Counted from the stretch's first letter, positions 2,657 to 13,677 are shown. The stretch is DNA of 64,000 nucleotides from a virus (IMGVR_UViG_3300009184_000043:4745-68744), one strand, 5' to 3'. The notes: a model not told the origin generated them from the letters alone. Numbers and translations: made by a program.

Positions 2657-4303
2657 ATGTCAAGACTAAGCGAATTTGCTGACAAAAAAACAGCAATGCA
2701 AATTTTACAAAACTCCACTTACGGAGCACTAGGAGTGGAGAACTTCATGGGAGGAACATCTTATGTTTTATCGCCTCTAAACACTTTAAAGATTGTTGCT
2801 GCGTCTTCGATCTTTGGTGAACCACAATACTATAGAGACGGATTAGGTGCTCCTAAGAATCTTATCACTATCCTTGACTATTCTATATTAGCTCCTATGT
2901 TCAAATCCGAATCCGGAGCTTTAAAAGACGATATGAGCGTTGTAGATATATTTGAGGAAGCCATACAAGCATCATTGGACTTCGACTTTAAATCAACCTT
3001 GGATTTAGCATTAGAACTTCGTAACGAGTACTATATGCGTTTAAATCCTGCTGTAATATTCATGAAAGCGAGTATGCACGAAGGACGTCAGAAGTTTAAC
3101 GAAGAAAATCCGGGATATATGAAAATGATAGGCAAGTCAATTGCTCTACGTCCAGATGATTTAACAAATCAGTTTGAATACTACATGTATAAGAACGGAA
3201 GCAAAAAAGGACTTTCCTCACTAGTAAAAAGAACTTGGGCAGAAAGACTTTCTGAATTCTCTAGATACCAATTGAATAAGTACAAAGGTAAAAGATTAAT
3301 AGATCTTGTTCGTATTTCCCACGGTAAAAGCGAGGACATTAACGAACTAATGTCAACTGGTACATTAAAAATAACAGAACGGGAAAAAACTTGGGAGAAT
3401 TTAAGATCTGAAAAGAAATCTTGGGAAGAGATCACAAATACTATCTTAATCCCTCACATGGCTCTTTTGAGAAACCTTAGAGGTATTTTTACTGAAGTTG
3501 AAGATCCTACAATTACTGCTAGAATTTTAACACAATTAAAATCGGGTGTTGTTAAGGGAAAACAATTTCCTTTTAGATATTGGTCTGCTTATAGAGCAGT
3601 AACAGATTCTCAGATCCACCACAAACAACTTGTTTTGGATACTTTAGAGGAATGTTTAGATATCTCTGTTGAGAATATGCCTAAGTTAAAAGGTAAAACA
3701 GTTTGTCTTTCAGATAACTCCGGATCTGCATGGGGAGCTTTCAATAGCGAATATGGAACAGTTACCGTGGCAGAAATTGCTAACTTGTCTTCTTTAATTA
3801 CCTCACTACAATCCGATTCTGGAGAGGTTGGAGTATTTGGAGATAACCTTTCATTAAAAGGTGTATCTAAAAGAAACGGTCTTCTTACTCAATTGGATGA
3901 AACATCTAAAAGAGGTAAAGCTCAAGGAGGTGGTACAGAAAATGGTATTTGGGTATTCTTTGATGAAGCTATTAAAAATAAAGTCCATTACGACAACATC
4001 TTTATCTATTCAGATATGCAGGCAGGGCACGGAGGTCTTTTTGGACACAGAGAAACAGTAGGATCAAGTAAATTTATCCACCCGAAAGGAGGGGGAACAC
4101 ACGTAGACGTACTTGCTATGGCTCAGGAATACAGGGAAAAGGTTAATCCTAAAGTTAATTTATTTACTGTACAGGTGGGTGGCTACAATAACACCGTGCT
4201 TCCTGAAGCTCTTTATAGAGGAGGAATATTAGCAGGATGGACAGGTAAAGAACCAATATTTGCTAAAGCAATTATAGACATTTGGGATTCAGTAGAAGCC
4301 TAA
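2657..4303 (+). CDS. Ro60/TROVE-domain RNA-binding protein (Rsr-like)
   Basis: 548 aa; MALLRNL, FPFRYWSAY, vWA MIDAS DNSGS, IYSDMQ, GW near C-terminus. Confidence 0.92.
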   Translation: MSRLSEFADKKTAMQILQNSTYGALGVENFMGGTSYVLSPLNTLKIVAASSIFGEPQYYRDGLGAPKNLITILDYSILAPMFKSESGALKDDMSVVDIFEEAIQASLDFDFKSTLDLALELRNEYYMRLNPAVIFMKASMHEGRQKFNEENPGYMKMIGKSIALRPDDLTNQFEYYMYKNGSKKGLSSLVKRTWAERLSEFSRYQLNKYKGKRLIDLVRISHGKSEDINELMSTGTLKITEREKTWENLRSEKKSWEEITNTILIPHMALLRNLRGIFTEVEDPTITARILTQLKSGVVKGKQFPFRYWSAYRAVTDSQIHHKQLVLDTLEECLDISVENMPKLKGKTVCLSDNSGSAWGAFNSEYGTVTVAEIANLSSLITSLQSDSGEVGVFGDNLSLKGVSKRNGLLTQLDETSKRGKAQGGGTENGIWVFFDEAIKNKVHYDNIFIYSDMQAGHGGLFGHRETVGSSKFIHPKGGGTHVDVLAMAQEYREKVNPKVNLFTVQVGGYNNTVLPEALYRGGILAGWTGKEPIFAKAIIDIWDSVEA

Positions 4304-4385: not shown

Positions 4386-4664
4386 ATGAAAAATTTAAAG
4401 ACATTTGAGAATCACAGTTACGAGGTTTATACTTCTGGTTCTAATATATTAAAAGGATACGGAGAAGAATTTCCATTTTCAAATTTATCAGTAGGTGACA
4501 AATTAGTTTATATGGGAGCTCCTTGTGAAGTTTATGAAGTATCTGATACTATTATCACCCTACAGAACCTAAATCAAAACTCAAAAAGATTTACTGTAAA
4601 CCAAAATATGTTTAACAAAGGAGGATTCATCTCTAAAAAAGATACCCCAGCTAAGCTCAAATAA
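4386..4664 (+). CDS. Hypothetical protein with capsid-targeting-like N-terminus
   Basis: Start moved to MKNLKTFEN (4386) behind GATAAATA at 4371; upstream part overlaps the terminator. Confidence 0.6.
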   Translation: MKNLKTFENHSYEVYTSGSNILKGYGEEFPFSNLSVGDKLVYMGAPCEVYEVSDTIITLQNLNQNSKRFTVNQNMFNKGGFISKKDTPAKLK

Positions 4665-4673
4665 AAATAAAAA

Positions 4674-4820
4674 ATGGCTAAACCTAAAACTACAGATTCT
4701 AGCAAGAACCACAAGCGCAGCTCTAAGAAAAAAAGACCAGGAATTCATTCCAAGTGTAAAAGTAGTGTAAGTAAGAATTCTAAGAACTACAAGAAAGCTT
4801 ACGTTGGTCAAGGTAAATAA
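4674..4820 (+). CDS. Small basic protein (48 aa) ending KKAYVGQGK, not in the ORF track
   Basis: MAKPKTTDSSKNHKRSSKKKRPGIHSKCKSSVSKNSKNYKKAYVGQGK; A-rich start context; fills the gap between genes. Confidence 0.75.
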   Translation: MAKPKTTDSSKNHKRSSKKKRPGIHSKCKSSVSKNSKNYKKAYVGQGK

Positions 4821-4846
4821 TAAGGATATATAAAATAAAAAAAAAG

Positions 4847-5197
4847 ATGAAATATCTAAGAATTTACGAACAATATTCCACTGAGGCTATGCCTATGGAA
4901 GACACTATGAGTGATGTTCATTTTGAAGCAGAAACTACAGATTTTAGACCTACCGACGGAAATAGCGAAGGTAATTACATTGTTAACTTTCAAAATGCAG
5001 ACGGGGAAGATACAACAATAGAAATTGCTGGCGCTTCTGAACCAGAATACGTTGGAAGTTCAATGGTAAGCAATATCGAGATGATAGAAGATTCAAGCTC
5101 TGACGGAAGAAGATATTCAATCGTTGGATATTATGATGAAGTACCTGGACAGGACGGCGCATACGAACTTAAAAAAGTATTAGTAGAAGAAATCTAA
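4847..5197 (+). CDS. Hypothetical acidic protein with capsid-targeting-like N-terminus
   Basis: MKYLRIYEQY; GATATATA 4825. Confidence 0.6.
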   Translation: MKYLRIYEQYSTEAMPMEDTMSDVHFEAETTDFRPTDGNSEGNYIVNFQNADGEDTTIEIAGASEPEYVGSSMVSNIEMIEDSSSDGRRYSIVGYYDEVPGQDGAYELKKVLVEEI

Positions 5198-5199
5198 TT

Positions 5200-5481
5200 A
5201 TGTCAATTAAAGTCTATACAGGATACGAAGAATTTAAATTTGAGGAAGAAGAGATCTGCGAATATTTAGAATCAGATTTTTCAGATCCAAATCAAGGAGA
5301 AGAATCTGATGATGTATTTTTCTATACAGAATCTAAAATAGATTTTAGAGATGATGCAGATTTCTACATACTATGTGATCTCGAAGATGAAGAGACTGCA
5401 GAAGATATCGCTTCTTACTTAGGTAAGTCTAAAAAAATAAATCTTCAAGATTTCAGAAAATCATTTTTTTATATAAGATAA
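5200..5481 (+). CDS. Hypothetical acidic protein
   Basis: 93-aa ORF 2 nt after the previous stop. Confidence 0.55.
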   Translation: MSIKVYTGYEEFKFEEEEICEYLESDFSDPNQGEESDDVFFYTESKIDFRDDADFYILCDLEDEETAEDIASYLGKSKKINLQDFRKSFFYIR

Positions 5482-5531
5482 AATATCTATATTTGTGAAA
5501 CAAAACAACAAATACGATATATAAAGTTCAA

Positions 5532-5591
5532 ATGAAAACAATATTTAACATATCACCTTCAATATTAAGACCGTCGATAAGACGATCCTAA
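5532..5591 (+). CDS. Attenuator leader peptide 1 (MKTIFNISPSILRPSIRRS)
   Basis: Last 13 codons are only Ile(ATA)/Ser(TCN)/Pro/Leu(TTA)/Arg, matching tRNA array 1. Confidence 0.8.
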   Translation: MKTIFNISPSILRPSIRRS

Positions 5592-5657
5592 AGGTCCTGT
5601 GTTAATAAAAAATAATCATTAACTAAACCGGGACCTTCAAAAAGTCCCGGTTTTTTT
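5591..5657 (+). terminator. Attenuator 1: antiterminator plus intrinsic terminator
   Basis: Terminator AAACCGGGAC/GTCCCGGTTT + T7 (5625-5657); AAGGTCCTG (5591-5599) pairs with CGGGACCTT (5629-5637). Confidence 0.85.
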
Positions 5658-5658
5658 G

Positions 5659-5670
5659 TGTTCTTTGACA
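5659..5670 (+). promoter_or_regulatory. boxA-like antitermination site
   Basis: TGTTCTTTGACA, repeated after all three attenuators. Confidence 0.6.
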
Positions 5671-5687
5671 TGTTGGATTATCAAATT

Positions 5688-5777
5688 GGAGAGTTGGCAG
5701 AGCCCGGTTTAATGCACCAGTCTTGAAAACTGACGTAGTGAAAGCTACCGGGGGTTCGAATCCCTCACTCTCCTCCA
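5688..5777 (+). tRNA. tRNA-Ser(TGA)
   Basis: Cloverleaf, loop CT-TGA-AA, long variable arm, encoded CCA. Confidence 0.93.
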
Positions 5778-5780
5778 ATT

Positions 5781-5852
5781 GCCTCCGTAGTTCAACGGAT
5801 AGAACAGCGGTTTTCTAAACCGTCAATGTGGGTTCGATTCCCGCCGGGGGTA
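5781..5852 (+). tRNA. tRNA-Arg(TCT)
   Basis: Cloverleaf, loop TT-TCT-AA. Confidence 0.9.
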
Positions 5853-5865
5853 CTAAAAAATAAAA

Positions 5866-6024
5866 AGCCCTCTGCCTAGCGCTGGGTATGGATCGAAGAT
5901 AGAATATGCCTCTACAACGTAGACAGTTAGAATATTTCGGTATTCTTTAATGATATGCACACTTATTCTCTAAATCGTGGGTTAGCACAGTTTGTATGTT
6001 CTGGGGATATTTAAAGACATACAA
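5866..6024 (+). ncRNA. Putative structured RNA of unknown class inside tRNA array 1
   Basis: Nested hairpins, e.g. TCTAC/GTAGA, AGAATAT-TTCG-GTATTCT, TTGTATGTT/GACATACAA; no credible ORF. Confidence 0.35.
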
Positions 6025-6027
6025 TTT

Positions 6028-6100
6028 CGGGATGTAGATCAGTTGGTAGATCGCCTGGTTTGGGACCAGGAGGCCCCAGGTTCGAGTCCTGGTATCCCGA
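6028..6100 (+). tRNA. tRNA-Pro(TGG)
   Basis: Cloverleaf, loop TT-TGG-GA. Confidence 0.93.
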
Positions 6101-6108
6101 CAGCCCCA

Positions 6109-6182
6109 AGAGGCTTAGCTCAATTGGTTAGAGCACATGCCTTATACGCATGCGGTCATGGGTTCGACTCCCATAGTCTCTA
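6109..6182 (+). tRNA. tRNA-Ile(TAT)
   Basis: Cloverleaf, CATGC-CT-TAT-AC-GCATG. Confidence 0.88.
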
Positions 6183-6186
6183 CTTA

Positions 6187-6260
6187 GGTCCTTTAGCTCA
6201 GTAGGTTAGAGCAACTGACTCATAATCAGTAGGTCCACGGTTCGAGCCCGTGAGGGACCA
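6187..6260 (+). tRNA. tRNA-Ile2(CAT, lysidine type)
   Basis: CAT anticodon with Ile2-like body (GGTCCTT acceptor, ACTGA stem); initiator and elongator Met tRNAs are present elsewhere. Confidence 0.78.
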
Positions 6261-6276
6261 CAAAAATTACACATTC

Positions 6277-6360
6277 GCCCGGGTGGTGGAATTGGTAGTC
6301 ACGCAGCACTTAAAATGCTGTAACCATTTGGTTGTACGGGTTCGATTCCCGTCCCGGGTA
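6277..6360 (+). tRNA. tRNA-Leu(TAA)
   Basis: Cloverleaf, loop CT-TAA-AA, long variable arm. Confidence 0.93.
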
Positions 6361-6365
6361 CATAT

Positions 6366-6470
6366 ATAAGAGTGGCGGAAGTGTGATCATTGCAATGATC
6401 CGATAGATAGACGCTAGGGTAATCTACCCGAGAATGAAAGTTCATATTGGTGCAAGTCCAATCTCTTGTA
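6366..6470 (+). ncRNA. tRNA-like RNA with D-loop hairpin insertion and degenerate anticodon arm
   Basis: ATAAGAG/CTCTTGT acceptor; GCG/CGC D stem; insert GATCATTGCAATGATC; T arm ATTGG-TGCAAGT-CCAAT. Confidence 0.55.
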
Positions 6471-6492
6471 CTTTTTTGTTGATATATACTAT

Positions 6493-7344
6493 ATGCCAAC
6501 ATCAAGACCTTTCGCATATAATCCAACACAAGCAACAATTTCAGGAACTACAAACGTAGGTACATTATGTGTAGGTGTATCTGCTTTAAACTATGGTGCA
6601 AAACCCGGGGGATTAACTTGGTGGATGGGTCCAGACGAGGATAATTCTTATATAATAGCTAAAGATGTACCCTCTGGAAACTTTCCAACTCAAGTAGGTA
6701 ATATAGGCACTGTACAATTCTGGGGATGTACTAATACAGATGAAGCTTTTCGAATTACAGTACAAATAATAAGCGGTACTACACAAGCATCTGCTTCAGC
6801 AGCTAATGATTGGTTAACAGCAAATAACTATTGGACTAACAGAAATCCATATCTTGCAGGTTTATATAAGACGACTTACTCTGGGTATTTTGCTGATAAT
6901 GTTAGTTTCTTTGCAACTGCGACTCCCGCATCGGTAGGTGGAAATCCGGCAACATCAGTACAAACCACTTCTATATTTGAACCTTCTCAGAATGATGGAG
7001 AAAATTTCAGTTGTCAATGGTTAGGATATTTCAAACCAACCACCACAGAAACCTACACATTCTTTACTTCATCTGATGATGCCTCCTATGTTTGGGTTGG
7101 TAGTAATGCTGTTAGTGGATTCACTACAACAAACTCAACAGTTAATAACGGTGGATTACACGGTACAATCGAAAAATCTGGGACAATCGCTTTAACTTCG
7201 GGTGTTTATTATCCTATAAGAATACAATTTGGAGAGTTGAGTGGTGGTGACGTAATGACATTTAATTACTCAACTCCTACTATTACTAAAACGACTAATG
7301 TAACTGGATTGGTTTTCTATAATACATCAACTAATGGATTCTAA
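6493..7344 (+). CDS. PA14-domain carbohydrate-binding virion protein
   Basis: NFSCQWLGYF, YTFFTSSDDAS, YYPIRIQFGE PA14 motifs; start moved to MPTSRPF behind GATATATA 6481. Confidence 0.8.
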   Translation: MPTSRPFAYNPTQATISGTTNVGTLCVGVSALNYGAKPGGLTWWMGPDEDNSYIIAKDVPSGNFPTQVGNIGTVQFWGCTNTDEAFRITVQIISGTTQASASAANDWLTANNYWTNRNPYLAGLYKTTYSGYFADNVSFFATATPASVGGNPATSVQTTSIFEPSQNDGENFSCQWLGYFKPTTTETYTFFTSSDDASYVWVGSNAVSGFTTTNSTVNNGGLHGTIEKSGTIALTSGVYYPIRIQFGELSGGDVMTFNYSTPTITKTTNVTGLVFYNTSTNGF

Positions 7345-7447
7345 TTGGATAATTAGATATATAGAATGGATAAAAAACCTTGGAAGATATTATTGGGGTA
7401 CCTGATAGAATAGATCACTTTAAGGAGTATTATAACTTAATAAAATA

Positions 7448-8290
7448 ATGGAAGAGTATAAATTAAATGAATACAATGAGTTATTAATTAATTTTGTAAT
7501 TGATGTAACTGATGAATACGGTAGCACTACCACACAACCTGCTAACCCAGAGACAGGTGTAACTGTTATGGTTGGGTTGGTAGCTTTATTATCTAGGAGT
7601 GGTTTAAATGAAGCGGAACCAGTACTTAATTCTAAAACACCTAGTATAATAGATTCAACTGATTATTTATCAAAACAGTCCTCAAGGGTAAATGAACAAG
7701 GACAAGCTGTTATTAACTTAGATAAAACTTTTCTTTCTACTGAAGCATATAGATTCTACCAAAACTATTATCAAAAGTATACAATAGCACTTAAAATTGT
7801 TATCGAAGTACCAAAAAGTGAAATATATGCTTCTTCAATTACTTCAGATAATATATTAGTTGAATGGACTGTTTCTAAATATTTACAATTTGATTCAATC
7901 AATTACTCAGAATACAATGACGACATATATCTGGAGTCGGCGGGAAATAATATCGTTGACTTTGTACAACTTCGTTCAACTTTAAAAACAGCTGAGGAGA
8001 GCTATCTTTTGATTAAAAAAAGATACGATTCTGAATTATTAGCCAGTACTACAGACTTAGAATTACCAATAAGTGCTGTATATGAGCCTGCTTCATTTTC
8101 ACAAGTAATTACACGCTTACTTGAGTTTCAAGAAGGGACATTACTACCAGGATTATCTCATGCTGAAAAATTAAATTTAGATGTTGAATATAAAAGATTA
8201 GACACTATTAACAAGCTAATTAATATAGTAACTGGTATGTATTCTGAGATCACTATTGAAGATGGAGAAGGAATGCCTTATAGTGGATAA
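7448..8290 (+). CDS. Hypothetical protein
   Basis: 280-aa ORF. Confidence 0.6.
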   Translation: MEEYKLNEYNELLINFVIDVTDEYGSTTTQPANPETGVTVMVGLVALLSRSGLNEAEPVLNSKTPSIIDSTDYLSKQSSRVNEQGQAVINLDKTFLSTEAYRFYQNYYQKYTIALKIVIEVPKSEIYASSITSDNILVEWTVSKYLQFDSINYSEYNDDIYLESAGNNIVDFVQLRSTLKTAEESYLLIKKRYDSELLASTTDLELPISAVYEPASFSQVITRLLEFQEGTLLPGLSHAEKLNLDVEYKRLDTINKLINIVTGMYSEITIEDGEGMPYSG

Positions 8291-8324
8291 AATATTAGAT
8301 ATATAGATTAAATAAAAAAAAGAA

Positions 8325-8603
8325 ATGAAACACCTTAAAAAATATCAAGATAACAATTCCAAAATTAACGAAGGATTTTGGGATTCACTTTTCGGAAAAC
8401 CCACAGTTGACGATGCTGCTCACGATTCTCTTAGAGGTCAAGGATGGAGCCACAGGGGTAAGGACGAAGAAAACTATATCATGTTCCAGGGACAAAAATT
8501 TTATCCAGAGCAAATTCAATATGATGATGCTTATTCAACTAAACAAATACCAAGAGTAGAAGGAGATATGTTAATTGTAGCTAATCCAGCTTGGAGCATG
8601 TAA
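8325..8603 (+). CDS. Hypothetical protein with capsid-targeting-like N-terminus
   Basis: MKHLKKYQD...INE; GATATATA 8298. Confidence 0.6.
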   Translation: MKHLKKYQDNNSKINEGFWDSLFGKPTVDDAAHDSLRGQGWSHRGKDEENYIMFQGQKFYPEQIQYDDAYSTKQIPRVEGDMLIVANPAWSM

Positions 8604-8621
8604 AAAATTAAATATAAAAAA

Positions 8622-9317
8622 ATGAAAATTAAAAGATTCAACGATTTTATTCTAGAAAATCAATATTACAATCCTATTAACGAATCCGATATCGTACCAG
8701 GTGTACCTTATAATTTGGGTACCGATAGATCTGATAAGCTAGGTAACATGAAAGCTAATATAATGACGGTTGATACAAATAGTAATGACACAATTATTGG
8801 CTTTAGTAAAGGTGGTGAAAGTCCTAAAAGTGTATCAATTTACTTTCCTTCCTCTAATTATGCTGATAAGAAGACTCCCCCTGAATTAAAGCAGGGAAAA
8901 TCATACGCTTACATATATGAAAGAGTCGATGGGGATGATAGGTATCCTGCAGCAATTACTAAAATGGAAGATTTTGACGCAGATAAATCCAGCGGTCAAT
9001 TATATAATGCTTCAAATTCTATAGATCTACTTGCAAATTTTATGGAAAGATCCGGTATTTGCATCGATTCTACTGCAGGCACAAATCTAGCAAAAGTTAT
9101 AACTACTCTTCTATTGTCTCCTACTTATAATACTACGGTAACTGATACATTTAAAAAATTCGCGAAGAAGATCAGTAAAGAAATTACAATAAAAGGATTC
9201 ATTCCTAAAATGGCCAAACAGTTTGGTGATAGCGGAACTAAACAAGATCCAGGAATGAAATCATTCGTAGAAGAATTTCCAAAAAGTTATGCTGCTCTTT
9301 CCCCTAAAAAAGCATAA
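8622..9317 (+). CDS. Hypothetical protein with capsid-targeting-like N-terminus
   Basis: MKIKRFNDFILE. Confidence 0.6.
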   Translation: MKIKRFNDFILENQYYNPINESDIVPGVPYNLGTDRSDKLGNMKANIMTVDTNSNDTIIGFSKGGESPKSVSIYFPSSNYADKKTPPELKQGKSYAYIYERVDGDDRYPAAITKMEDFDADKSSGQLYNASNSIDLLANFMERSGICIDSTAGTNLAKVITTLLLSPTYNTTVTDTFKKFAKKISKEITIKGFIPKMAKQFGDSGTKQDPGMKSFVEEFPKSYAALSPKKA

Positions 9318-9336
9318 GGGTGTGAAACATTAAACT

Positions 9337-9366
9337 AAAAAGCCAGCTATATAGCTGGCTTTTTTT
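9337..9366. terminator. Bidirectional intrinsic terminator
   Basis: AAAAAGCCAGCTATATAGCTGGCTTTTTTT between convergent genes. Confidence 0.85.
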
Positions 9367-9877
9367 ATTGCTCTTTATATTCAGATATGGAGCATATCTT
9401 GTTATAATGCCATCCAACCATATATTCTCTATAGAATACGCCATCTTTGAATAGAGTATAAATCTCTTGGACAGTTCCATCGTCCTGAGTTTGAACCTCA
9501 TATTCATATCTGTCGTATCTTACCTGTTTAAGGAAACTATCGTAATATGAATCTACTGTGCTCTTTATCATAATTGGCTCATATAGCATATCGTCTTCTG
9601 TATAAAGATCCCATTCCACACCGGGAGCAAAAACTCCAATATAGCTTTCATCCTTCTTAGTAATAAATTTTTTCCATAGCTTAGGATTCCCTACTACGCT
9701 TAAGAATTTACCTCTTAGTTCCGGTTGATCGTAAAATGGATAGTAAGCATCGCCTCTCAATTTGCTAGCTCCAGCCATTGTGTTGTTGAAAGATTCTATG
9801 CCTTCATTCTGCGATAAAGCGGTTACACTTGTTCCTAGTATGAATAGGAAAATAAATGCTAATTTTAGATTTTTCAT
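9365..9877 (-). CDS. Secreted/periplasmic hypothetical protein
   Basis: N-terminal signal peptide MKNLKLAFIFLFILGTSVTALSQ. Confidence 0.65.
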   Translation of the reverse strand: MKNLKLAFIFLFILGTSVTALSQNEGIESFNNTMAGASKLRGDAYYPFYDQPELRGKFLSVVGNPKLWKKFITKKDESYIGVFAPGVEWDLYTEDDMLYEPIMIKSTVDSYYDSFLKQVRYDRYEYEVQTQDDGTVQEIYTLFKDGVFYREYMVGWHYNKICSISEYKEQ

Positions 9878-10016
9878 AGATCATTGTATTATTGTTACAG
9901 ATTCAAATATAGATCAGAAATATAGATAATTCCAGATGATTTCACATTTTTATTTTTTTTAATAGAAACTTTTTTGTACTTTTGAGGTATATAATAAAAA
10001 AAGAACAAAGCTTTCA

Positions 10017-10106
10017 ATGAAACACTTTTTAAATATCGCAATAGATTTTCAACTTCATAAAGAAGATGACCTTCTAGAGGATACAATTAAGTGTCAGAGG
10101 AAATAA
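10017..10106 (+). CDS. Attenuator leader peptide 2 (MKHFLNIAIDFQLHKEDDLLEDTIKCQRK)
   Basis: Run GAA GAT GAC CTT CTA GAG GAT matches the Glu/Asp/Leu(TAG) tRNAs of array 2. Confidence 0.8.
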   Translation: MKHFLNIAIDFQLHKEDDLLEDTIKCQRK

Positions 10107-10156
10107 ATTTATATAACGATATAATTTAAACCTCTGATAACCTCAGAGGTTTTTTT
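10092..10156 (+). terminator. Attenuator 2: antiterminator plus intrinsic terminator
   Basis: Terminator AAACCTCTGA-TAACC-TCAGAGGTTT + T run (10128-10156); TGTCAGAGG (10092-10100) pairs with CCTCTGATA (10131-10139). Confidence 0.85.
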
Positions 10157-10164
10157 GTTTTATA

Positions 10165-10176
10165 TGTTCTTTGAAA
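10165..10176 (+). promoter_or_regulatory. boxA-like antitermination site
   Basis: TGTTCTTTGAAA. Confidence 0.6.
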
Positions 10177-10180
10177 TTAC

Positions 10181-10252
10181 GCTGCCATCGTCTAACGGTT
10201 AGGACCTATGGTTTTCATCCATAAAATCGGAGTTCGATTCTCCGTGGCAGTA
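10181..10252 (+). tRNA. tRNA-Glu(TTC)
   Basis: Cloverleaf, loop TT-TTC-AT. Confidence 0.92.
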
Positions 10253-10263
10253 CAAAAAATTAA

Positions 10264-10338
10264 GGTCCCGTAGTTAAACGGCTATAATGCTGCCCTGTCA
10301 CGGCAGAGTTCGGAGTTCGATTCTCCGCGGGACCGCCA
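10264..10338 (+). tRNA. tRNA-Asp(GTC)
   Basis: Cloverleaf, loop CT-GTC-AC, G73, CCA. Confidence 0.93.
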
Positions 10339-10343
10339 TATAT

Positions 10344-10416
<73 letters not shown>

Positions 10417-10420
10417 CTAA

Positions 10421-10499
10421 GCCCAGGTGGTGAAATGGTATACACGCTAGATTTAGGATCTAGTGCGAAAGCGTGAGGGTTCGAGTCCCTCCCTGGGTA
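10421..10499 (+). tRNA. tRNA-Leu(TAG)
   Basis: Cloverleaf, loop TT-TAG-GA, variable arm. Confidence 0.93.
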
Positions 10500-10501
10500 C
10501 T

Positions 10502-11071
10502 ATGAAAATTATATTTTTAGATCATGATGGAGTAATTTGTCTTTCCCAACAATTTGGAGGACGTTACAAAAAGCAGGCTAAAGCTAGAAAAAAGCTTTCG
10601 CAGGATGTAATGAGTTTTCATGTAGGAGCTAGATTTGATAACTTCGACAAGAAAGCAATAAAGGTTTTAAATTTAATTCTAGAAGAGACTGGAGCTGAAA
10701 TAGTTGTTTCTTCAGATTGGAAGGTCTGGGCAACAATAGAGGAAATGGGAGAATACTATGAACAACAAGGAATAATTAAAAAACCTATAGATTTCACACC
10801 AAGAGAATATCCTTACACAGAAAACCAAGAATGGCATCCAGACTGGGATTTAGAAGCATCAAGAACTTTAGAAATCCAAGAATGGTTAAAGGCCCATTCC
10901 GGAGTTACTCATTGGGTAGCAATAGATGATTTAGATATGAGCTTTAAAGAAGTATCTAATAATAGAAGCGGTACTGGATGGGGATTAACAAACTTTGTAC
11001 ACACTCCTAGCATTATGCAAGGGATTAAGCAATCAGGAATAAAAGAAAAAGTTTTAAAATTTTTGAAATAA
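10502..11071 (+). CDS. HAD-superfamily phosphatase, Swiss-army-knife RNA-repair type
   Basis: IIFLDHDGV, IVVSSDW, WVAIDD motifs; start moved to ATG 10502 because the GTG start lies inside tRNA-Leu. Confidence 0.8.
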   Translation: MKIIFLDHDGVICLSQQFGGRYKKQAKARKKLSQDVMSFHVGARFDNFDKKAIKVLNLILEETGAEIVVSSDWKVWATIEEMGEYYEQQGIIKKPIDFTPREYPYTENQEWHPDWDLEASRTLEIQEWLKAHSGVTHWVAIDDLDMSFKEVSNNRSGTGWGLTNFVHTPSIMQGIKQSGIKEKVLKFLK

Positions 11072-11152
11072 TTTGAAAAACATTTTTTTATTTAAAAAAG
11101 ATATTGTACTTTTACGAAACTATTCTGGAAACAGGATATATAATAAAGAAAA

Positions 11153-11260
11153 ATGAAAAACTGTAGTAAACATAACATCAATCGCATGATCAGTCAGATT
11201 AATGGCTGCTATCAAACGGTGGCGTTTTGGGCAAAGGGGAAAGAACCCGATCGAAGCTAA
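11153..11260 (+). CDS. Attenuator leader peptide 3 (MKNCSKHNINRMISQINGCYQTVAFWAKGKEPDRS)
   Basis: First 30 codons use exactly the 16 amino acids of tRNA array 3 and no others. Confidence 0.82.
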   Translation: MKNCSKHNINRMISQINGCYQTVAFWAKGKEPDRS

Positions 11261-11323
11261 TACAGAAAATCATATTTAGATATTTCGGAAAAGGCTTTGA
11301 TTCACATCAAAGCCTTTTTTTTT
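11249..11323 (+). terminator. Attenuator 3: antiterminator plus intrinsic terminator
   Basis: Terminator AAAAGGCTTTGAT-TCAC-ATCAAAGCCTTTT + T run (11289-11323); GATCGAAGCT (11249-11258) pairs with GGCTTTGATT (11293-11302) using G:U pairs. Confidence 0.82.
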
Positions 11324-11334
11324 GTTCTTTGACA
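11323..11334 (+). promoter_or_regulatory. boxA-like antitermination site
   Basis: TGTTCTTTGACA. Confidence 0.6.
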
Positions 11335-11348
11335 TACTGGAAAAAAAT

Positions 11349-11421
11349 GGTACCGTAGCTCAGTTGGTAGAGCACTAGACTGAAAATCTAGGTGTCGCCG
11401 GTTCGATTCCGGCCGGTACCA
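11349..11421 (+). tRNA. tRNA-Phe(GAA)
   Basis: Cloverleaf, loop CT-GAA-AA. Confidence 0.94.
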
Positions 11422-11491
11422 CAATACTAAACAAGAAATTGTCTCACTAAACTAATCATGTTTAGTATTACAAAAACAAGTTTAGTAAAAT

Positions 11492-11564
11492 GATCTCGTA
11501 GCTCAGCTGGTAGAGCACCGCACTTTTAATGCGGGAGTCGAGGGTTCGAGCCCCTCCGGGATCA
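11492..11564 (+). tRNA. tRNA-Lys(TTT)
   Basis: Cloverleaf, loop CT-TTT-AA. Confidence 0.94.
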
Positions 11565-11570
11565 CTATAC

Positions 11571-11643
11571 ACATCGGTAGCTCAGTTGGTAGAGCACCAG
11601 TCTCCAAAACTGGGTGTCGTAGGTTCGAGTCCTACCCTTTGTG
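11571..11643 (+). tRNA. tRNA-Trp(CCA)
   Basis: Cloverleaf, loop CT-CCA-AA; two acceptor mismatches (ACATCGG/CCTTTGT). Confidence 0.82.
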
Positions 11644-11651
11644 CAAAATAA

Positions 11652-11724
11652 GGCTCTATAGTTCAATGGATTAGAATAGATCACTACGGATGATCTGATC
11701 CTGGTTCGAATCCAGGTGGAGCCT
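11652..11724 (+). tRNA. tRNA-Arg(ACG)
   Basis: Cloverleaf, loop CT-ACG-GA. Confidence 0.92.
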
Positions 11725-11735
11725 CAAATAAATAA

Positions 11736-11807
11736 GGTCGTGTGGTCGAGTGGTTTAGGCACTAGTCTGCAAAACTAGTTATACTGGTTCGATTCCAGTC
11801 ACGACCT
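11736..11807 (+). tRNA. tRNA-Cys(GCA)
   Basis: Cloverleaf, loop CT-GCA-AA, U73. Confidence 0.93.
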
Positions 11808-11824
11808 CAAAAAAATTTAAAAAT

Positions 11825-11962
11825 ATGACGATAGAAAGCAGAATAGTAGCAAGAGGAAGTTTCCCCTCTAGTAAAGAAAACTTAAGAAGAGAAACAATAA
11901 AATTTAAACACACCGAAAGATTGATAAAAAGAATCAGAAGGTTAATTAAAAAAGGAAAGTAA
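11825..11962 (+). CDS. Small basic ORF (45 aa) inside tRNA array 3
   Basis: MTIESRIVARGSFPSSKENLRRETIKFKHTERLIKRIRRLIKKGK; fills the spacer; stop overlaps tRNA-Ser 5' end. Confidence 0.45.
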   Translation: MTIESRIVARGSFPSSKENLRRETIKFKHTERLIKRIRRLIKKGK

Positions 11963-12039
11963 TCTCAGATGGTGACGGGGCTCGCCTGCTAAGCGAAGCG
12001 TACTTTAATTGGTATTTGGTTCGATTCCAATTCTTTCCG
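11954..12039 (+). tRNA. tRNA-Ser(GCT)
   Basis: Loop CT-GCT-AA, long variable arm, G73; atypical D arm. Confidence 0.78.
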
Positions 12040-12045
12040 CAACAT

Positions 12046-12122
12046 TGACATATAGCTCAGTTGGTTAGAGCGTTGATCTGATACGTCAAAGGCCGAAGGT
12101 TCGAATCCTTCTATGTCAACCA
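12046..12122 (+). tRNA. tRNA-Ile(GAT)
   Basis: Cloverleaf, loop CT-GAT-AC, CCA. Confidence 0.92.
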
Positions 12123-12127
12123 CATTT

Positions 12128-12200
12128 AGTCTCTTAGCTCAGTTGGTAGAGCGTTTGGTTTACATCCAAAATGTCGGGGGTTCGAATCCCTCAGGGACTA
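12128..12200 (+). tRNA. tRNA-Val(TAC)
   Basis: Cloverleaf, loop TT-TAC-AT. Confidence 0.92.
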
Positions 12201-12202
12201 CA

Positions 12203-12291
12203 AGATTAGAAGCGGTGAAAGGGGTTACTTCGATCAAAACCTTGTAATTTTTTGACCAAAAAAACCACCCCGTTCAAATATTCTCTAATCT
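12203..12291 (+). ncRNA. Y RNA-like element 4, between tRNA-Val and tRNA-Asn
   Basis: AGATTAGA/TCTAATCT; AGCGG; TGAAAGGGGT/ACCCCGTTCA; TACTTC; same architecture as elements 1-3. Confidence 0.65.
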
Positions 12292-12296
12292 AAACT

Positions 12297-12369
12297 GGGG
12301 ATGTAGCTCAGCGGTAGTAGCAACTGACTGTTAATCAGTAGGTCATAGGTTCGAATCCTATCATCCCCG
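12297..12369 (+). tRNA. tRNA-Asn(GTT)
   Basis: Cloverleaf, loop CT-GTT-AA, G73. Confidence 0.92.
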
Positions 12370-12374
12370 CACTT

Positions 12375-12459
12375 CGGAGTGTTGAGCAATTGGTTGCTCA
12401 GCTGACTGTAAATCAGCCGCCTTACGGCATTGGGGGTTCGAATCCCTCCGCTCCGACCA
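12375..12459 (+). tRNA. tRNA-Tyr(GTA)
   Basis: Loop CT-GTA-AA, long variable arm, CCA; C1:G72 pair. Confidence 0.9.
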
Positions 12460-12462
12460 AAT

Positions 12463-12537
12463 GCAGGTATCGTATAACGGTCATTACTTCTGACTTCCAA
12501 TCAGAAGATCTCGGTTCGATTCCGGGTACCTGCTCCA
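12463..12537 (+). tRNA. tRNA-Gly(TCC)
   Basis: Cloverleaf, loop CT-TCC-AA, U73, CCA. Confidence 0.93.
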
Positions 12538-12611
12538 GTGGGATTAGCTCAGCTGGCTAGAGCACTTGCCTTGCACGCAAGGGGTCAACGGTTCGAATCC
12601 GTTATCCTCCA
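12538..12611 (+). tRNA. tRNA-Ala(TGC)
   Basis: Loop CT-TGC-AC; G3:U70 identity pair. Confidence 0.92.
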
Positions 12612-12620
12612 CTTTTATAT

Positions 12621-12693
12621 GGCGAGTTAGCTCAGCTGGTAGAGCGTCGGAATCATACCCCGAAGGTCGGCAGTTCGAACCTGCCACTCGCTA
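12621..12693 (+). tRNA. Elongator tRNA-Met(CAT)
   Basis: GGCGAGT acceptor, loop AT-CAT-AC. Confidence 0.82.
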
Positions 12694-12695
12694 CT

Positions 12696-12769
12696 GTGAC
12701 GGTAGCTCAGTTGGTTAGAGCGTCTGATTGTGGTTCAGAAGGTCGGGAGTTCGATTCTCCTCTGTCACC
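12696..12769 (+). tRNA. tRNA-His(GTG)
   Basis: Loop TT-GTG-GT, C73; encoded -1 base is T. Confidence 0.9.
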
Positions 12770-12773
12770 TATT

Positions 12774-12846
12774 GCCTTTGTAGCTCAGCTGGTAGAGCGC
12801 TTCATTTGTAATGAAGATGTCGCAGGTTCGATCCCTGTCAAAGGCT
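12774..12846 (+). tRNA. tRNA-Thr(TGT)
   Basis: Cloverleaf, loop TT-TGT-AA. Confidence 0.93.
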
Positions 12847-12852
12847 CTATAA

Positions 12853-12925
12853 TGTCCTGTGGTGTAATTGGCAACACGTCTGATTTTGATTCAGAAGAGT
12901 CCAGGTTCGAGCCCTGGCGGGACAT
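12853..12925 (+). tRNA. tRNA-Gln(TTG)
   Basis: Cloverleaf, loop TT-TTG-AT, U1:A72. Confidence 0.92.
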
Positions 12926-12948
12926 CTAAAAAATAAGATATATAGGTC

Positions 12949-13677
12949 ATGATGATCCTAAAATATTCTGAATTTATTAACGAGAGTAATAGGGAAGAAT
13001 ACATAAAAAATTATTGCAAAGAATCCCCTGTTATTCCACAGGTTCCTGTGTCTTTTAAAAAAATACATGGTGATCTAATTAAAGTGGGAAAATACAAAGA
13101 GACGTTAAAATCTATTGATAATGGTGATGCAGTAATAGTAGGAATAAGAAGAAAATTGGAAGCTAGAAAGAATGGTCAAGAAAAATATATTGACAGTATT
13201 TATTTTATACCAAAGAATGCAAAAAAAGAAAATCCTAATATTACACCATTCCAAGCCACCACAGTTCCTTCTGTCGCTTGGTTCGATACCGATGTAGCAA
13301 TTTTGGATGATTCTGAATATAAATTTAAGATCGGAACTCACACTTTTGGATCGTCGAATAAAACAATACCTGCTTTGGTTCCTAGTATTGATGGATTATC
13401 TCCAAAGGAAATACCAGTAAATAGATTTTCAGCAAAAGACAACGTGGTAAAAACATATGATCCACCAAAAAAAGATATAGGAACTGGTACAAATTTTCAT
13501 TATGGGTTATCTCCTAAAGGTGTAGATGGATCTTCTGGTATACCCTGTGTTGGTGGATATTCTGCTGGATGTCAAGTAATTCCGACAGAAAAAAAATGGA
13601 ACGAATTTTGGAATTTAGTAAAAAATTCAAAACAACAAATCTTTTGGTATTCTATTATCGAAGAAGATAAATTATAA
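12949..13677 (+). CDS. Putative L,D-transpeptidase-like (YkuD-type) cell-wall enzyme
   Basis: NFH...YSAGCQV His/Cys motif; capsid-targeting-like start ILKYSEFINE. Confidence 0.55.
   Translation: MMILKYSEFINESNREEYIKNYCKESPVIPQVPVSFKKIHGDLIKVGKYKETLKSIDNGDAVIVGIRRKLEARKNGQEKYIDSIYFIPKNAKKENPNITPFQATTVPSVAWFDTDVAILDDSEYKFKIGTHTFGSSNKTIPALVPSIDGLSPKEIPVNRFSAKDNVVKTYDPPKKDIGTGTNFHYGLSPKGVDGSSGIPCVGGYSAGCQVIPTEKKWNEFWNLVKNSKQQIFWYSIIEEDKL

Follow-up and report, generated by a model that had tools for sequence, protein, structure and literature searches.

Leader-peptide attenuation is the textbook mechanism by which bacteria match the synthesis of amino acids to demand. Ribosome-mediated attenuators include the trp, his, leu, and phe leaders as well as the multivalent thr and ilvGMEDA leaders, and the leaders of amino-acid operons carry codon runs of one or three amino acids; the pheST synthetase operon is the nearest case of an attenuator acting on a component of translation. 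Other described systems share single features with this mechanism: (i) T-box riboswitches bind one uncharged transfer RNA (tRNA) via a specifier codon, involve no open reading frame (ORF) or ribosome, and control synthetase and amino-acid genes, (ii) leader peptides of the ermC/cat type sense drug-bound ribosomes that have made a specific nascent peptide, and their effect is mostly on the initiation of translation, and (iii) the boxA sequences of ribosomal RNA (rRNA) operons and of the lambda nut sites serve antitermination by Nus factors. Here we analyze a stretch of viral DNA of 64 kilobases (kb), one strand (IMGVR_UViG_3300009184_000043:4745-68744; hereafter the window), in which leader-peptide attenuation has seemingly been applied to viral tRNA genes. 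Each of three tRNA arrays in the window is preceded by a short leader ORF that matches the array in amino acids and codon families, an intrinsic terminator, and a boxA-like element. From sequence comparison and folding models, we regard it as likely that each array is controlled by a leader-peptide attenuator in which stalling of the ribosome gives read-through.

Leader ORFs and the tRNA arrays that follow them

All coordinates below are those of the whole window, and all listed parts lie on the plus strand (Table 1). The default ARAGORN search found 25 tRNAs in three co-oriented arrays. A 26th tRNA, tRNA-Ser(gct), was obtained with a relaxed threshold at a site that also gives a weak tRNA-clan match in Rfam. 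The arrays comprise 6, 4, and 16 genes, and array 3 thus reaches the 16 tRNAs assigned to it in the first-pass annotation, which had been made from the sequence alone, by 15 ARAGORN predictions plus tRNA-Ser(gct). Comparison of the three units revealed the same order of parts in each: (i) a TAnnTTTG-like octamer, (ii) a short ORF starting with ATG, (iii) a hairpin followed by a T-run, (iv) an exact copy of TGTTCTTTGA, and (v) the tRNA genes. This common layout is the one that had been described in the first-pass annotation; the tRNAs, leader ORFs, terminators, and exact boxes were all located, and only the start of leader 1, given there as 5533, had to be moved by one nucleotide (nt) to 5532. 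An octamer, of the form that we take to be the -7-type promoter consensus, is present 31-43 nt upstream of each leader ATG; it is weak evidence for a promoter, because the window contains 72 copies of it on both strands. A sigma-70-type promoter scan of the window yielded 35 sites compared with 32.1 in shuffled sequences, which is no excess, and sigma-70 is the wrong model for the host clade.

The terminators of units 2 and 3 are listed by a terminator consensus scan, whereas that of unit 1 was found by separate folding, since its 9-nt loop exceeds the loop limit of the scan. The window terminators have free energies (dG) of -13 to -15, possess T-runs, and are separated from the first tRNA by 22-35 nt. 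The interval between terminator and first tRNA holds the box only and no promoter; thus, the tRNAs of the window would be transcribed only via read-through of the terminator.

The leaders match their own arrays down to the synonymous codon family, in accordance with the central observation of the first-pass annotation, which is confirmed here. Leaders 1, 2, and 3 cover 6/6, 4/4, and 16/16 of the amino acids of their arrays, respectively. Codons 2-30 of leader 3 specify solely the 16 amino acids of array 3, and all of them are used; this leader contains no Leu, and its Glu, Pro, and Asp residues are confined to codons 31-33. Codon families that discriminate between isoacceptors exist for Leu (TTR/CTN), Arg (AGR/CGN), Ser (TCN/AGY), and Ile (ATA/ATY). 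The discriminating codons of the leaders fall into the family of the isoacceptor of their own array in 22 of 24 cases, compared with 12.5 expected from the codon usage of the phage (P=6.4e-6), the exceptions being a single CGA (leader 1) and a single TTA (leader 2). Leader 3 encodes both of its Arg residues by CGN, a family that makes up 11% of the Arg codons in the phage genes.

For comparison with average small ORFs, as suggested in the first-pass annotation, we scored the 351 ATG ORFs of 15-50 codons in the 68.7-kb genome (a single contig) against each array by three scores: the enrichment in array amino acids, the longest run of matches, and the coverage. No other ORF among the 351 reaches the values of leader 1 or of leader 3 on all three scores jointly, and leader 2 is one of two ORFs that reach its values, so that the window leaders rank first or second. 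By this comparison and by those in other phages described below, the leaders appear enriched in product-cognate codons, as expected for an attenuator.

The window genome occurs in freshwater and riverine metagenomes (DNA contigs), and a search for RNA datasets that contain positions 5400-13000 gave none. No close relative was found among deposited phages, where the best match is the tRNA-Glu of Cellulophaga phages. Three relatives, L003, L009, and L018, are 97-98% identical to the window over units 2 and 3 and therefore too close to it to be used for covariation analysis. The leader ORFs, with the start and stop codons that an attenuator would require, are kept in these relatives. Natural variants of leader 1 include a synonymous Ser change, a change of the last codon, a change in the terminator loop, and 5598 T>C, which converts a U-G pair of antiterminator 1 (see below) to C-G, whereas the sole change found inside the seven-codon Glu/Asp/Leu block of leader 2 in relatives is synonymous. 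Overall, the variants of the window leaders are synonymous, located outside the matched codons, or antiterminator-strengthening, and as far as sequences can tell they agree with constraint on the leaders.

Recurrence of the units in other phages

The first-pass annotation had proposed to examine whether leader content follows array content in related phages, and the outcome was positive in Cellulophaga phage phi4:1 and in two sets of uncultured phage contigs selected by rule. Phage phi4:1 (L001), reached via the tRNA-Glu match, has three units (L001 7714-7835, 8638-8809, and 10420-10568) consisting of a promoter octamer, a short ORF, and a terminator located 6-10 nt from the first tRNA; these units lack the box. 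Its arrays split the amino acids quite differently from those of the window, and each of its leaders is enriched for its own set, with a coverage of 6/6, 8/9, and 6/6. In unit A, codons 4-14 encode all six amino acids of the seven downstream tRNAs and no others, and in unit C, 13 of 14 consecutive codons belong to the six-member set of the following tRNAs. The leader of unit B corresponds to an annotated hypothetical protein, gp075 (L001 8638-8757). In a leader-by-array matrix of eight curated units, every leader scores best on its own array, with one tie.

Two side observations concern the cultured phages. The annotated TTG start of gp075 falls inside the promoter octamer common to units A and B, and there is no in-frame ATG; the GTG at 8674 is therefore a likelier start. 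Apart from phi4:1, phage phi17:2 carries such units by similarity of its record.

For a discovery set, 44 viral contigs were fetched via the conserved end of tRNA-Glu. The pipeline searched for tRNAs preceded by a gap of 150 nt or more and for a hairpin in this gap with an energy of -8 kcal/mol or lower and a T-run behind it, and the leader was defined as the longest ATG ORF of 12-70 codons ending within 60 nt before the hairpin. The 31 candidates were reduced to 20 non-redundant units, with three obvious false ones kept in. The summed -log10 P of these units is 33.4, compared with 9.0 +/- 2.7 (maximum 23.8) for a null distribution obtained by permutation of arrays; none of 20,000 permutations attained this sum. 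The sum was 12.9 and 2.9 in the two remaining reading frames and 8.9 in the reverse complement. In 17 of 20 units, no amino acid of the array is missing from the leader (Fisher P=1.3e-5 compared with random windows of real proteins).

A replication set was fetched via the box motif and included 115 loci, 90 of them with tRNAs, which yielded 56 candidates; 35 units were retained as non-redundant, containing at least three tRNAs, and not homologous to the discovery leaders. Their sum of 32.5 was again reached by 0 of 20,000 permutations (null 13.4 +/- 2.6, maximum 25.5), which gives P<=5e-5 for the permutation test in each of the two sets, and coverage is complete in 24 of 35 units (Fisher P=1.8e-9). 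Codon families across phages match in 63 of 88 cases compared with 48.5 expected (P=0.001), a weaker effect than in the window; the Arg CGN and Leu CTN families track the array well. The homologous leaders of L004 and L010 differ by an insertion of one codon that keeps the frame. Judged from the sequences of the two contig sets, the design is widespread among phages.

An additional nucleotide motif was observed in the leaders. ACATA(T) was found approximately 16-18 nt downstream of the start codon in 35 of the 55 leaders selected by rule, compared with 40 of 1255 long ORFs (P=1e-33). It is present in window leaders 1 and 3 (near 5546 and 11167) and in most leaders of L001-L045 and of L166 onward. 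Since it is found in all three frames, it represents a nucleotide signal rather than a peptide motif; its letters are those of the 3' half of the box. A pause site and a factor-binding site are among the possibilities for its role.

Predicted switch and competing explanations

In 14 units, the best duplex between the 5' arm of the terminator and an upstream leader segment was compared with 500 dinucleotide shuffles. The complementarity is significant (p<0.05) in 8 of 14 units, with a combined Fisher P=1.1e-6 (two of the non-significant units are mutually homologous). The window units give dG values of -10.4 (p=0.06), -11.8 (p=0.048), and -11.0 (p=0.024) for units 1, 2, and 3, respectively. Thus, the antiterminator segment that the first-pass annotation had placed at the 3' end of each leader ORF was recovered as a complementary strand, although strand 1 is situated just past the stop codon. 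The partner strand is always located 3' of the matched codons, from 43 nt before to 15 nt after the first base of the stop codon, and the stop codon is 18-33 nt upstream of the terminator stem.

The effect of a ribosome, which had also been proposed for examination, was modelled at equilibrium by folding the nascent RNA up to the terminator loop with the footprint forced to be single-stranded; the footprint was set to span 15 nt before to 10 nt after the A-site codon. A switch is predicted in 6 of 12 units, including all three window units. With the ribosome on any codon of the matched stretch, the 5' arm of the window terminators is sequestered with a probability of 0.8-1.0. The antiterminator pairing of unit 1 is 0.9 in the stalled state and 0.08 with the ribosome at the stop codon; in unit 2, it is 0.8-0.9 in the stalled state and 0.2-0.3 over the last six codons and the stop; and in unit 3, it is 1.0 upon stalling at codons 2-28 and 0.4-0.6 from codon 31 to the stop. 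In the model, the antiterminator would therefore be ribosome-dependent and mutually exclusive with the terminator, as required for an attenuator. In the six switching units, array amino acids account for 84 of 115 codons in the stall-sensitive zone and for 7 of the 33 stall-insensitive codons (odds ratio 10, P=1e-7), whereas pooling of all 12 units reduces the odds ratio to 1.7 (P=0.02). The non-array residues of leaders 2 and 3 sit in the stall-insensitive tail. Without a ribosome, the window units are modelled as read-through (0.8-0.98), whereas the model predicts termination for unit A of phi4:1 (0.21), similarly to the classical arrangement of trp. For one diverged leader family with seven members, RNAalifold returned no antiterminator helix; compensatory changes in the terminator stem of this family were seen by eye.

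These results support, at the level of sequences and models, the attenuation interpretation of the first-pass annotation, and the proposed mechanism can be outlined as follows. Each array would form one transcription unit that consists of a promoter, a translated short leader, an intrinsic terminator, a boxA-like element, and tRNA genes. The 5' arm of the terminator would pair with a strand that is located either in the last part of the leader ORF or directly past its stop codon. If a tRNA is scarce, the ribosome would stall at the corresponding leader codon and leave this strand free, and the free strand would capture the 5' arm before the 3' arm is synthesized, so that RNA polymerase continues into the array. 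A ribosome that has reached the stop codon close behind the polymerase would cover the strand, and the terminator would then form and end transcription. Since the leader is written in the codons of its own array, a shortage of the products would switch the array on, and recovered supply would switch it off. As the untranslated state also reads through in the model, the default would be ON. Past the attenuator, the boxA-like element would probably recruit host antitermination factors of the rRNA type and thereby carry the polymerase through the long untranslated array. As natural triggers, we infer three candidates: anticodon nucleases, a mismatch in codon usage, and starvation.

Several results weigh against attenuation as the explanation for the units or are neutral to it. 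Whole-peptide enrichment is weak for window leader 2 and for large arrays (P=0.07-0.1); of the 20 discovery leaders, only 10 score highest on their own array; and the Ser codon families track the array poorly outside the window. Contrasts between close homologues show no coupling of leader and array changes (P=0.37): the leader changed with the array in 19 contrasts, against it in 16, and not at all in 49. Many of the array differences in these contrasts are likely to be due to arrays cut by the ends of the loci, and we count this result as neutral rather than contrary. No significant antiterminator was found in 5 of 14 units (phi4:1 unit B, L027, L032, L012, and L041b), and no switch was modelled in 6 of 12 (phi4:1 units B and C, L004, L039, L027, and L032). 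The terminators are more stable than the antiterminators, as is the case in trp; the switch must therefore be kinetic, which goes beyond the equilibrium model used. Finally, some other phages have a canonical TTTG-N19-TAnnTTTG promoter between the leader terminator and the tRNAs. A terminator followed by tRNAs with no promoter between them, the arrangement expected under attenuation, is present in the window but not in L010, L020, L029, and the first unit of L004. Leaders in the promoter-interrupted units (these four and the second unit of L043; Table 1) still match their arrays. Because of the internal promoter, the attenuator would not be the sole route to the array there, which suggests either two routes of expression or a different role of the leader.

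The internal promoters in several phages, the six units without a modelled switch, and the ACATA motif, whose occurrence in all three frames near leader nt +17 points to an extra factor, are also the observations that favour a different logic for translated and matched leaders. Such a logic could be feed-forward, with efficient translation promoting read-through, or the short transcript or its peptide could act in trans, in which case the terminator merely ends a small gene, and the tRNAs stem from leaky read-through or another promoter. We regard this as unlikely, since in the window, in phi4:1, and in most other units the terminator is separated from the first tRNA by 6-35 nt that contain no promoter; the distance of 18-33 nt from stop to stem means that a terminating ribosome cannot melt the stem, whereas in the window units it covers the antiterminator; and the array-matched codons are found where stalling favours the antiterminator.

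Sensing could also be direct, with codon-like triplets of the leader RNA binding tRNA anticodons in the manner of a T-box specifier and setting the terminator without ribosomes. The match to tRNAs as such and the units that lack a clear ribosome-dependent switch would fit this explanation. However, the triplets that match belong to a single ORF running from a start to a stop codon, and the one-codon insertion between homologous leaders leaves the frame intact; scores are far lower when the same DNA is read in other frames; Rfam gave no match to a T-box or any other riboswitch in 4500-13500 at E<=1; and no T-box is known to read up to 16 different tRNAs. Direct sensing is thus very improbable. 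Hardly credible is an origin by chance, with accidental small ORFs, terminators that end upstream units, and weak termination that allows constitutive expression of the tRNAs: small ORFs are numerous in this AT-rich genome (the 351 above), and the whole-peptide enrichment of leader 2 alone is not significant, but the permutation, frame, and random-window controls in two separate sets, the rank of the window leaders among small ORFs, and the codon-family match (P=6e-6) all contradict it. Among Rfam leader families, Thr_leader (5538-5660; 25.7 bits compared with a cut-off of 55) and L20_leader scored far below the threshold and were set aside, and an Rfam search of ten loci at the gathering score returned tRNAs only.

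Stall-dependent attenuation of the arrays, if true, would make phage tRNA arrays regulated, self-correcting modules instead of constitutive cargo and would explain why the arrays are split into blocks with one leader per block. It would further tie tRNA supply to RNA-repair genes and to the capture of a host rRNA antitermination signal, bear on the arms race around tRNA-cutting defences of the host, and provide a compact, natural, and modular sensor of codon-specific decoding speed. A more far-reaching proposal, about which we are rather more doubtful than convinced, is that the units are per-array sensors of tRNA supply that act as an inducible counter-defence. The tRNA blocks and the RNA-repair gene of block 2 would be largely silent until tRNAs are cleaved by the host or exhausted by the AT-rich phage genes; precisely the block that replaces the missing tRNAs would then be expressed with the help of host rRNA antitermination via a copied boxA, in a design that is widespread in phages of Bacteroidota and beyond.

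Table 1. Parts of the three tRNA units of the window, and units of other phages with an internal promoter
Feature	Position	Strand	Remarks
Unit 1 putative -7-type promoter octamer (TAnnTTTG form)	5488..5495	+	36 nt 5' of leader ATG
Leader ORF 1	5532..5591	+	19 codons; 14/18 post-start residues are array 1 amino acids; run of 13
Predicted antiterminator strand 1	5593..5604	+	directly 3' of stop codon; pairs with terminator 5' arm (5628-5637)
Intrinsic terminator 1	5625..5657	+	hairpin 5625-5653 and T-run; 10-bp stem, 9-nt loop, dG -15.0
boxA-like element 1	5659..5677	+	18 nt identical to 16S-23S spacer element of Flavobacteriales genome L101
tRNA array 1	5688..6361	+	Ser-TGA, Arg-TCT, Pro-TGG, Ile-TAT, CAT (Met or Ile2), Leu-TAA
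Unit 2 putative -7-type promoter octamer	9977..9984	+	kept in relatives
Leader ORF 2	10017..10106	+	29 codons; seven consecutive Glu/Asp/Leu codons at 10062-10082
Predicted antiterminator strand 2	10093..10110	+	covers last codons and stop
Intrinsic terminator 2	10128..10159	+	consensus scan (hairpin 10128-10152) and folding
boxA-like element 2	10165..10178	+	exact TGTTCTTTGA copy
tRNA array 2	10181..10500	+	Glu-TTC, Asp-GTC, CAT (initiator-like), Leu-TAG
HAD_SAK_2 gene	10502..11071	+	PF18143, E=7.6e-22
Unit 3 putative -7-type octamer	11107..11114	+	one mismatch; perfect in relative L009
Leader ORF 3	11153..11260	+	35 codons
Predicted antiterminator strand 3	11249..11259	+	within last leader codons
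Intrinsic terminator 3	11287..11322	+	consensus scan (hairpin 11287-11320) and folding
boxA-like element 3	11323..11341	+	17 nt same as spacer element of Rufibacter rRNA operon (L078)
tRNA array 3	11349..12926	+	15 ARAGORN tRNAs and tRNA-Ser(gct) 11954-12040
Promoter and box between leader terminator and tRNAs	L004 448-680 (first unit); L010 1069-1300; L043 13937-14209 (second unit)		oriented coordinates
Promoter and box between leader terminator and tRNAs	L020 2955-3230; L029 4181-4482		oriented coordinates

The boxA-like element, neighbouring genes, and comparison with known systems

The sequence TGTTCTTTGA is present in three exact copies in the 64 kb, compared with 0.28 expected, and 1 of 100 shuffles reaches three. 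All three copies are located 2-12 nt after the T-run of a terminator and 12-20 nt before the first tRNA. With one mismatch allowed, no enrichment was observed in the window (11 found compared with 10.4 expected). The 17-nt form of the box was found in at least 120 stretches of bacterial genomes, mostly of Bacteroidota. Six box loci were scanned with Rfam; four of them hold complete rRNA operons, and in 4/4 the motif lies between the spacer tRNAs and the 23S gene, whereas two of the four also carry a copy of the box 130-150 nt upstream of the 16S gene. The same dual position, in the leader and in the spacer, is characteristic of boxA in enterobacterial rRNA operons, and the first 12 nt of the box resemble the boxA of Escherichia coli. 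At unit 2, relatives L003 and L009 carry CGCTCTTTGA where the window has TGTTCTTTGA; we take this variant to be nearer to the enterobacterial and lambda boxA than TGTTCTTTGA. In leaderless phage units, the box is found directly 3' of a canonical TTTG-N19-TAnnTTTG promoter.

The box sequence matches the element in the boxA position of Bacteroidota rRNA operons and is a candidate NusB/NusE site. As expected for an element of the boxA type, it appears to lie downstream of the promoter and to be transcribed. Probably, it is an antitermination signal copied from rRNA operons, which would protect the transcription of the long untranslated array beyond the attenuator. A literature search with the box sequence returned primer matches only. 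The possibility that the box itself is a promoter was considered and rejected, given its location downstream of a canonical promoter in other phages and inside the transcript in rRNA operons.

The genes near the units also relate to RNA. HAD_SAK_2 encodes the HAD domain of the RNA-repair 'Swiss Army Knife' family and follows the last tRNA of array 2 at a distance of 1 nt; neither a terminator nor a promoter is present in between. Because of this spacing, it is probably co-transcribed with array 2 and would be under the control of attenuator 2. A protein of 548 amino acids with a TROVE (Ro60-like) domain is encoded at 2657-4303, 1.2 kb upstream of unit 1. The context of these two genes fits a module for damaged or scarce RNA without proving the trigger.

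Some further features of the three units were noted. A conserved GGTATATAAT-like stretch is situated 3' of the -7 octamer in all three units (5515-5525, 9986-9998, and 11134-11148) and recurs in many further phages, some of them leaderless; the stretch is a probable marker of the transcript start. The arrays contain gaps free of tRNAs at 5854-6027 (array 1) and at 11809-11953 and 12202-12296 (array 3), and no terminator was seen in any of them; the gap at 11809-11953 holds an ORF of 45 codons (11825-11962) that extends into the beginning of tRNA-Ser(gct). An Ile2 identity would suit the CAT tRNA of array 1, given that it adjoins Ile-TAT and that leader 1 encodes each of its four Ile residues by ATA. 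We take the other CAT tRNA (array 2, 10344-10417) to be an initiator tRNA, since the first pair of its acceptor stem is mismatched and its anticodon stem includes three G-C pairs.

No account of leader-peptide control of tRNA genes was found in the searched full texts of openly accessible articles; the first-pass annotation had known of none either, and for this literature its statement holds. The nearest published case of a regulated extra tRNA array found is the trn tRNA operon of Anabaena sp. PCC 7120, which is silent and induced under translational stress (PMC8421152; PMC10272220). Like the phage units as proposed here, this operon is an extra tRNA array switched on by impaired translation. 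Its control is attributed to direct repeats at the promoter and a repressor, TrcR, and the terms leader peptide, attenuat-, and terminator are absent from both texts (PMC8421152; PMC10272220).

The phage units share with the attenuators of amino-acid operons a short ORF rich in product-cognate codons, an intrinsic terminator, and a competing antiterminator; in both, the position of the ribosome would set the availability of the antiterminator, and stalling would give read-through. They differ in several respects: (i) they would regulate tRNAs, and the sensor is spelled in the codons of the product itself, (ii) their leaders sample up to 16-17 amino acids, once to a few times each, (iii) the untranslated state of the window units is modelled as read-through, with no clear 1:2 hairpin, and (iv) they are phage-borne and followed by a boxA-like element. 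With T-box riboswitches, they share the sensing of tRNA status and the control of termination upstream of genes for the translation apparatus, but the units gave no T-box match in the Rfam search reported above. Similarly to ermC/cat leaders, the leader ORF would report the state of translation and open downstream expression, whereas the phage leaders are tied to the codon supply of many tRNAs. The 17-18 nt of the box also make up the element that Bacteroidota rRNA operons carry in the 16S-23S spacer and in the 16S leader; unlike the boxA of rRNA operons and lambda nut, the box heads phage tRNA arrays downstream of a terminator that would itself be regulated. Thus, the phage units seem to represent a new use of a known class of mechanism, ribosome-mediated attenuation, in which the target, tRNA genes, and the breadth of sensing are new.

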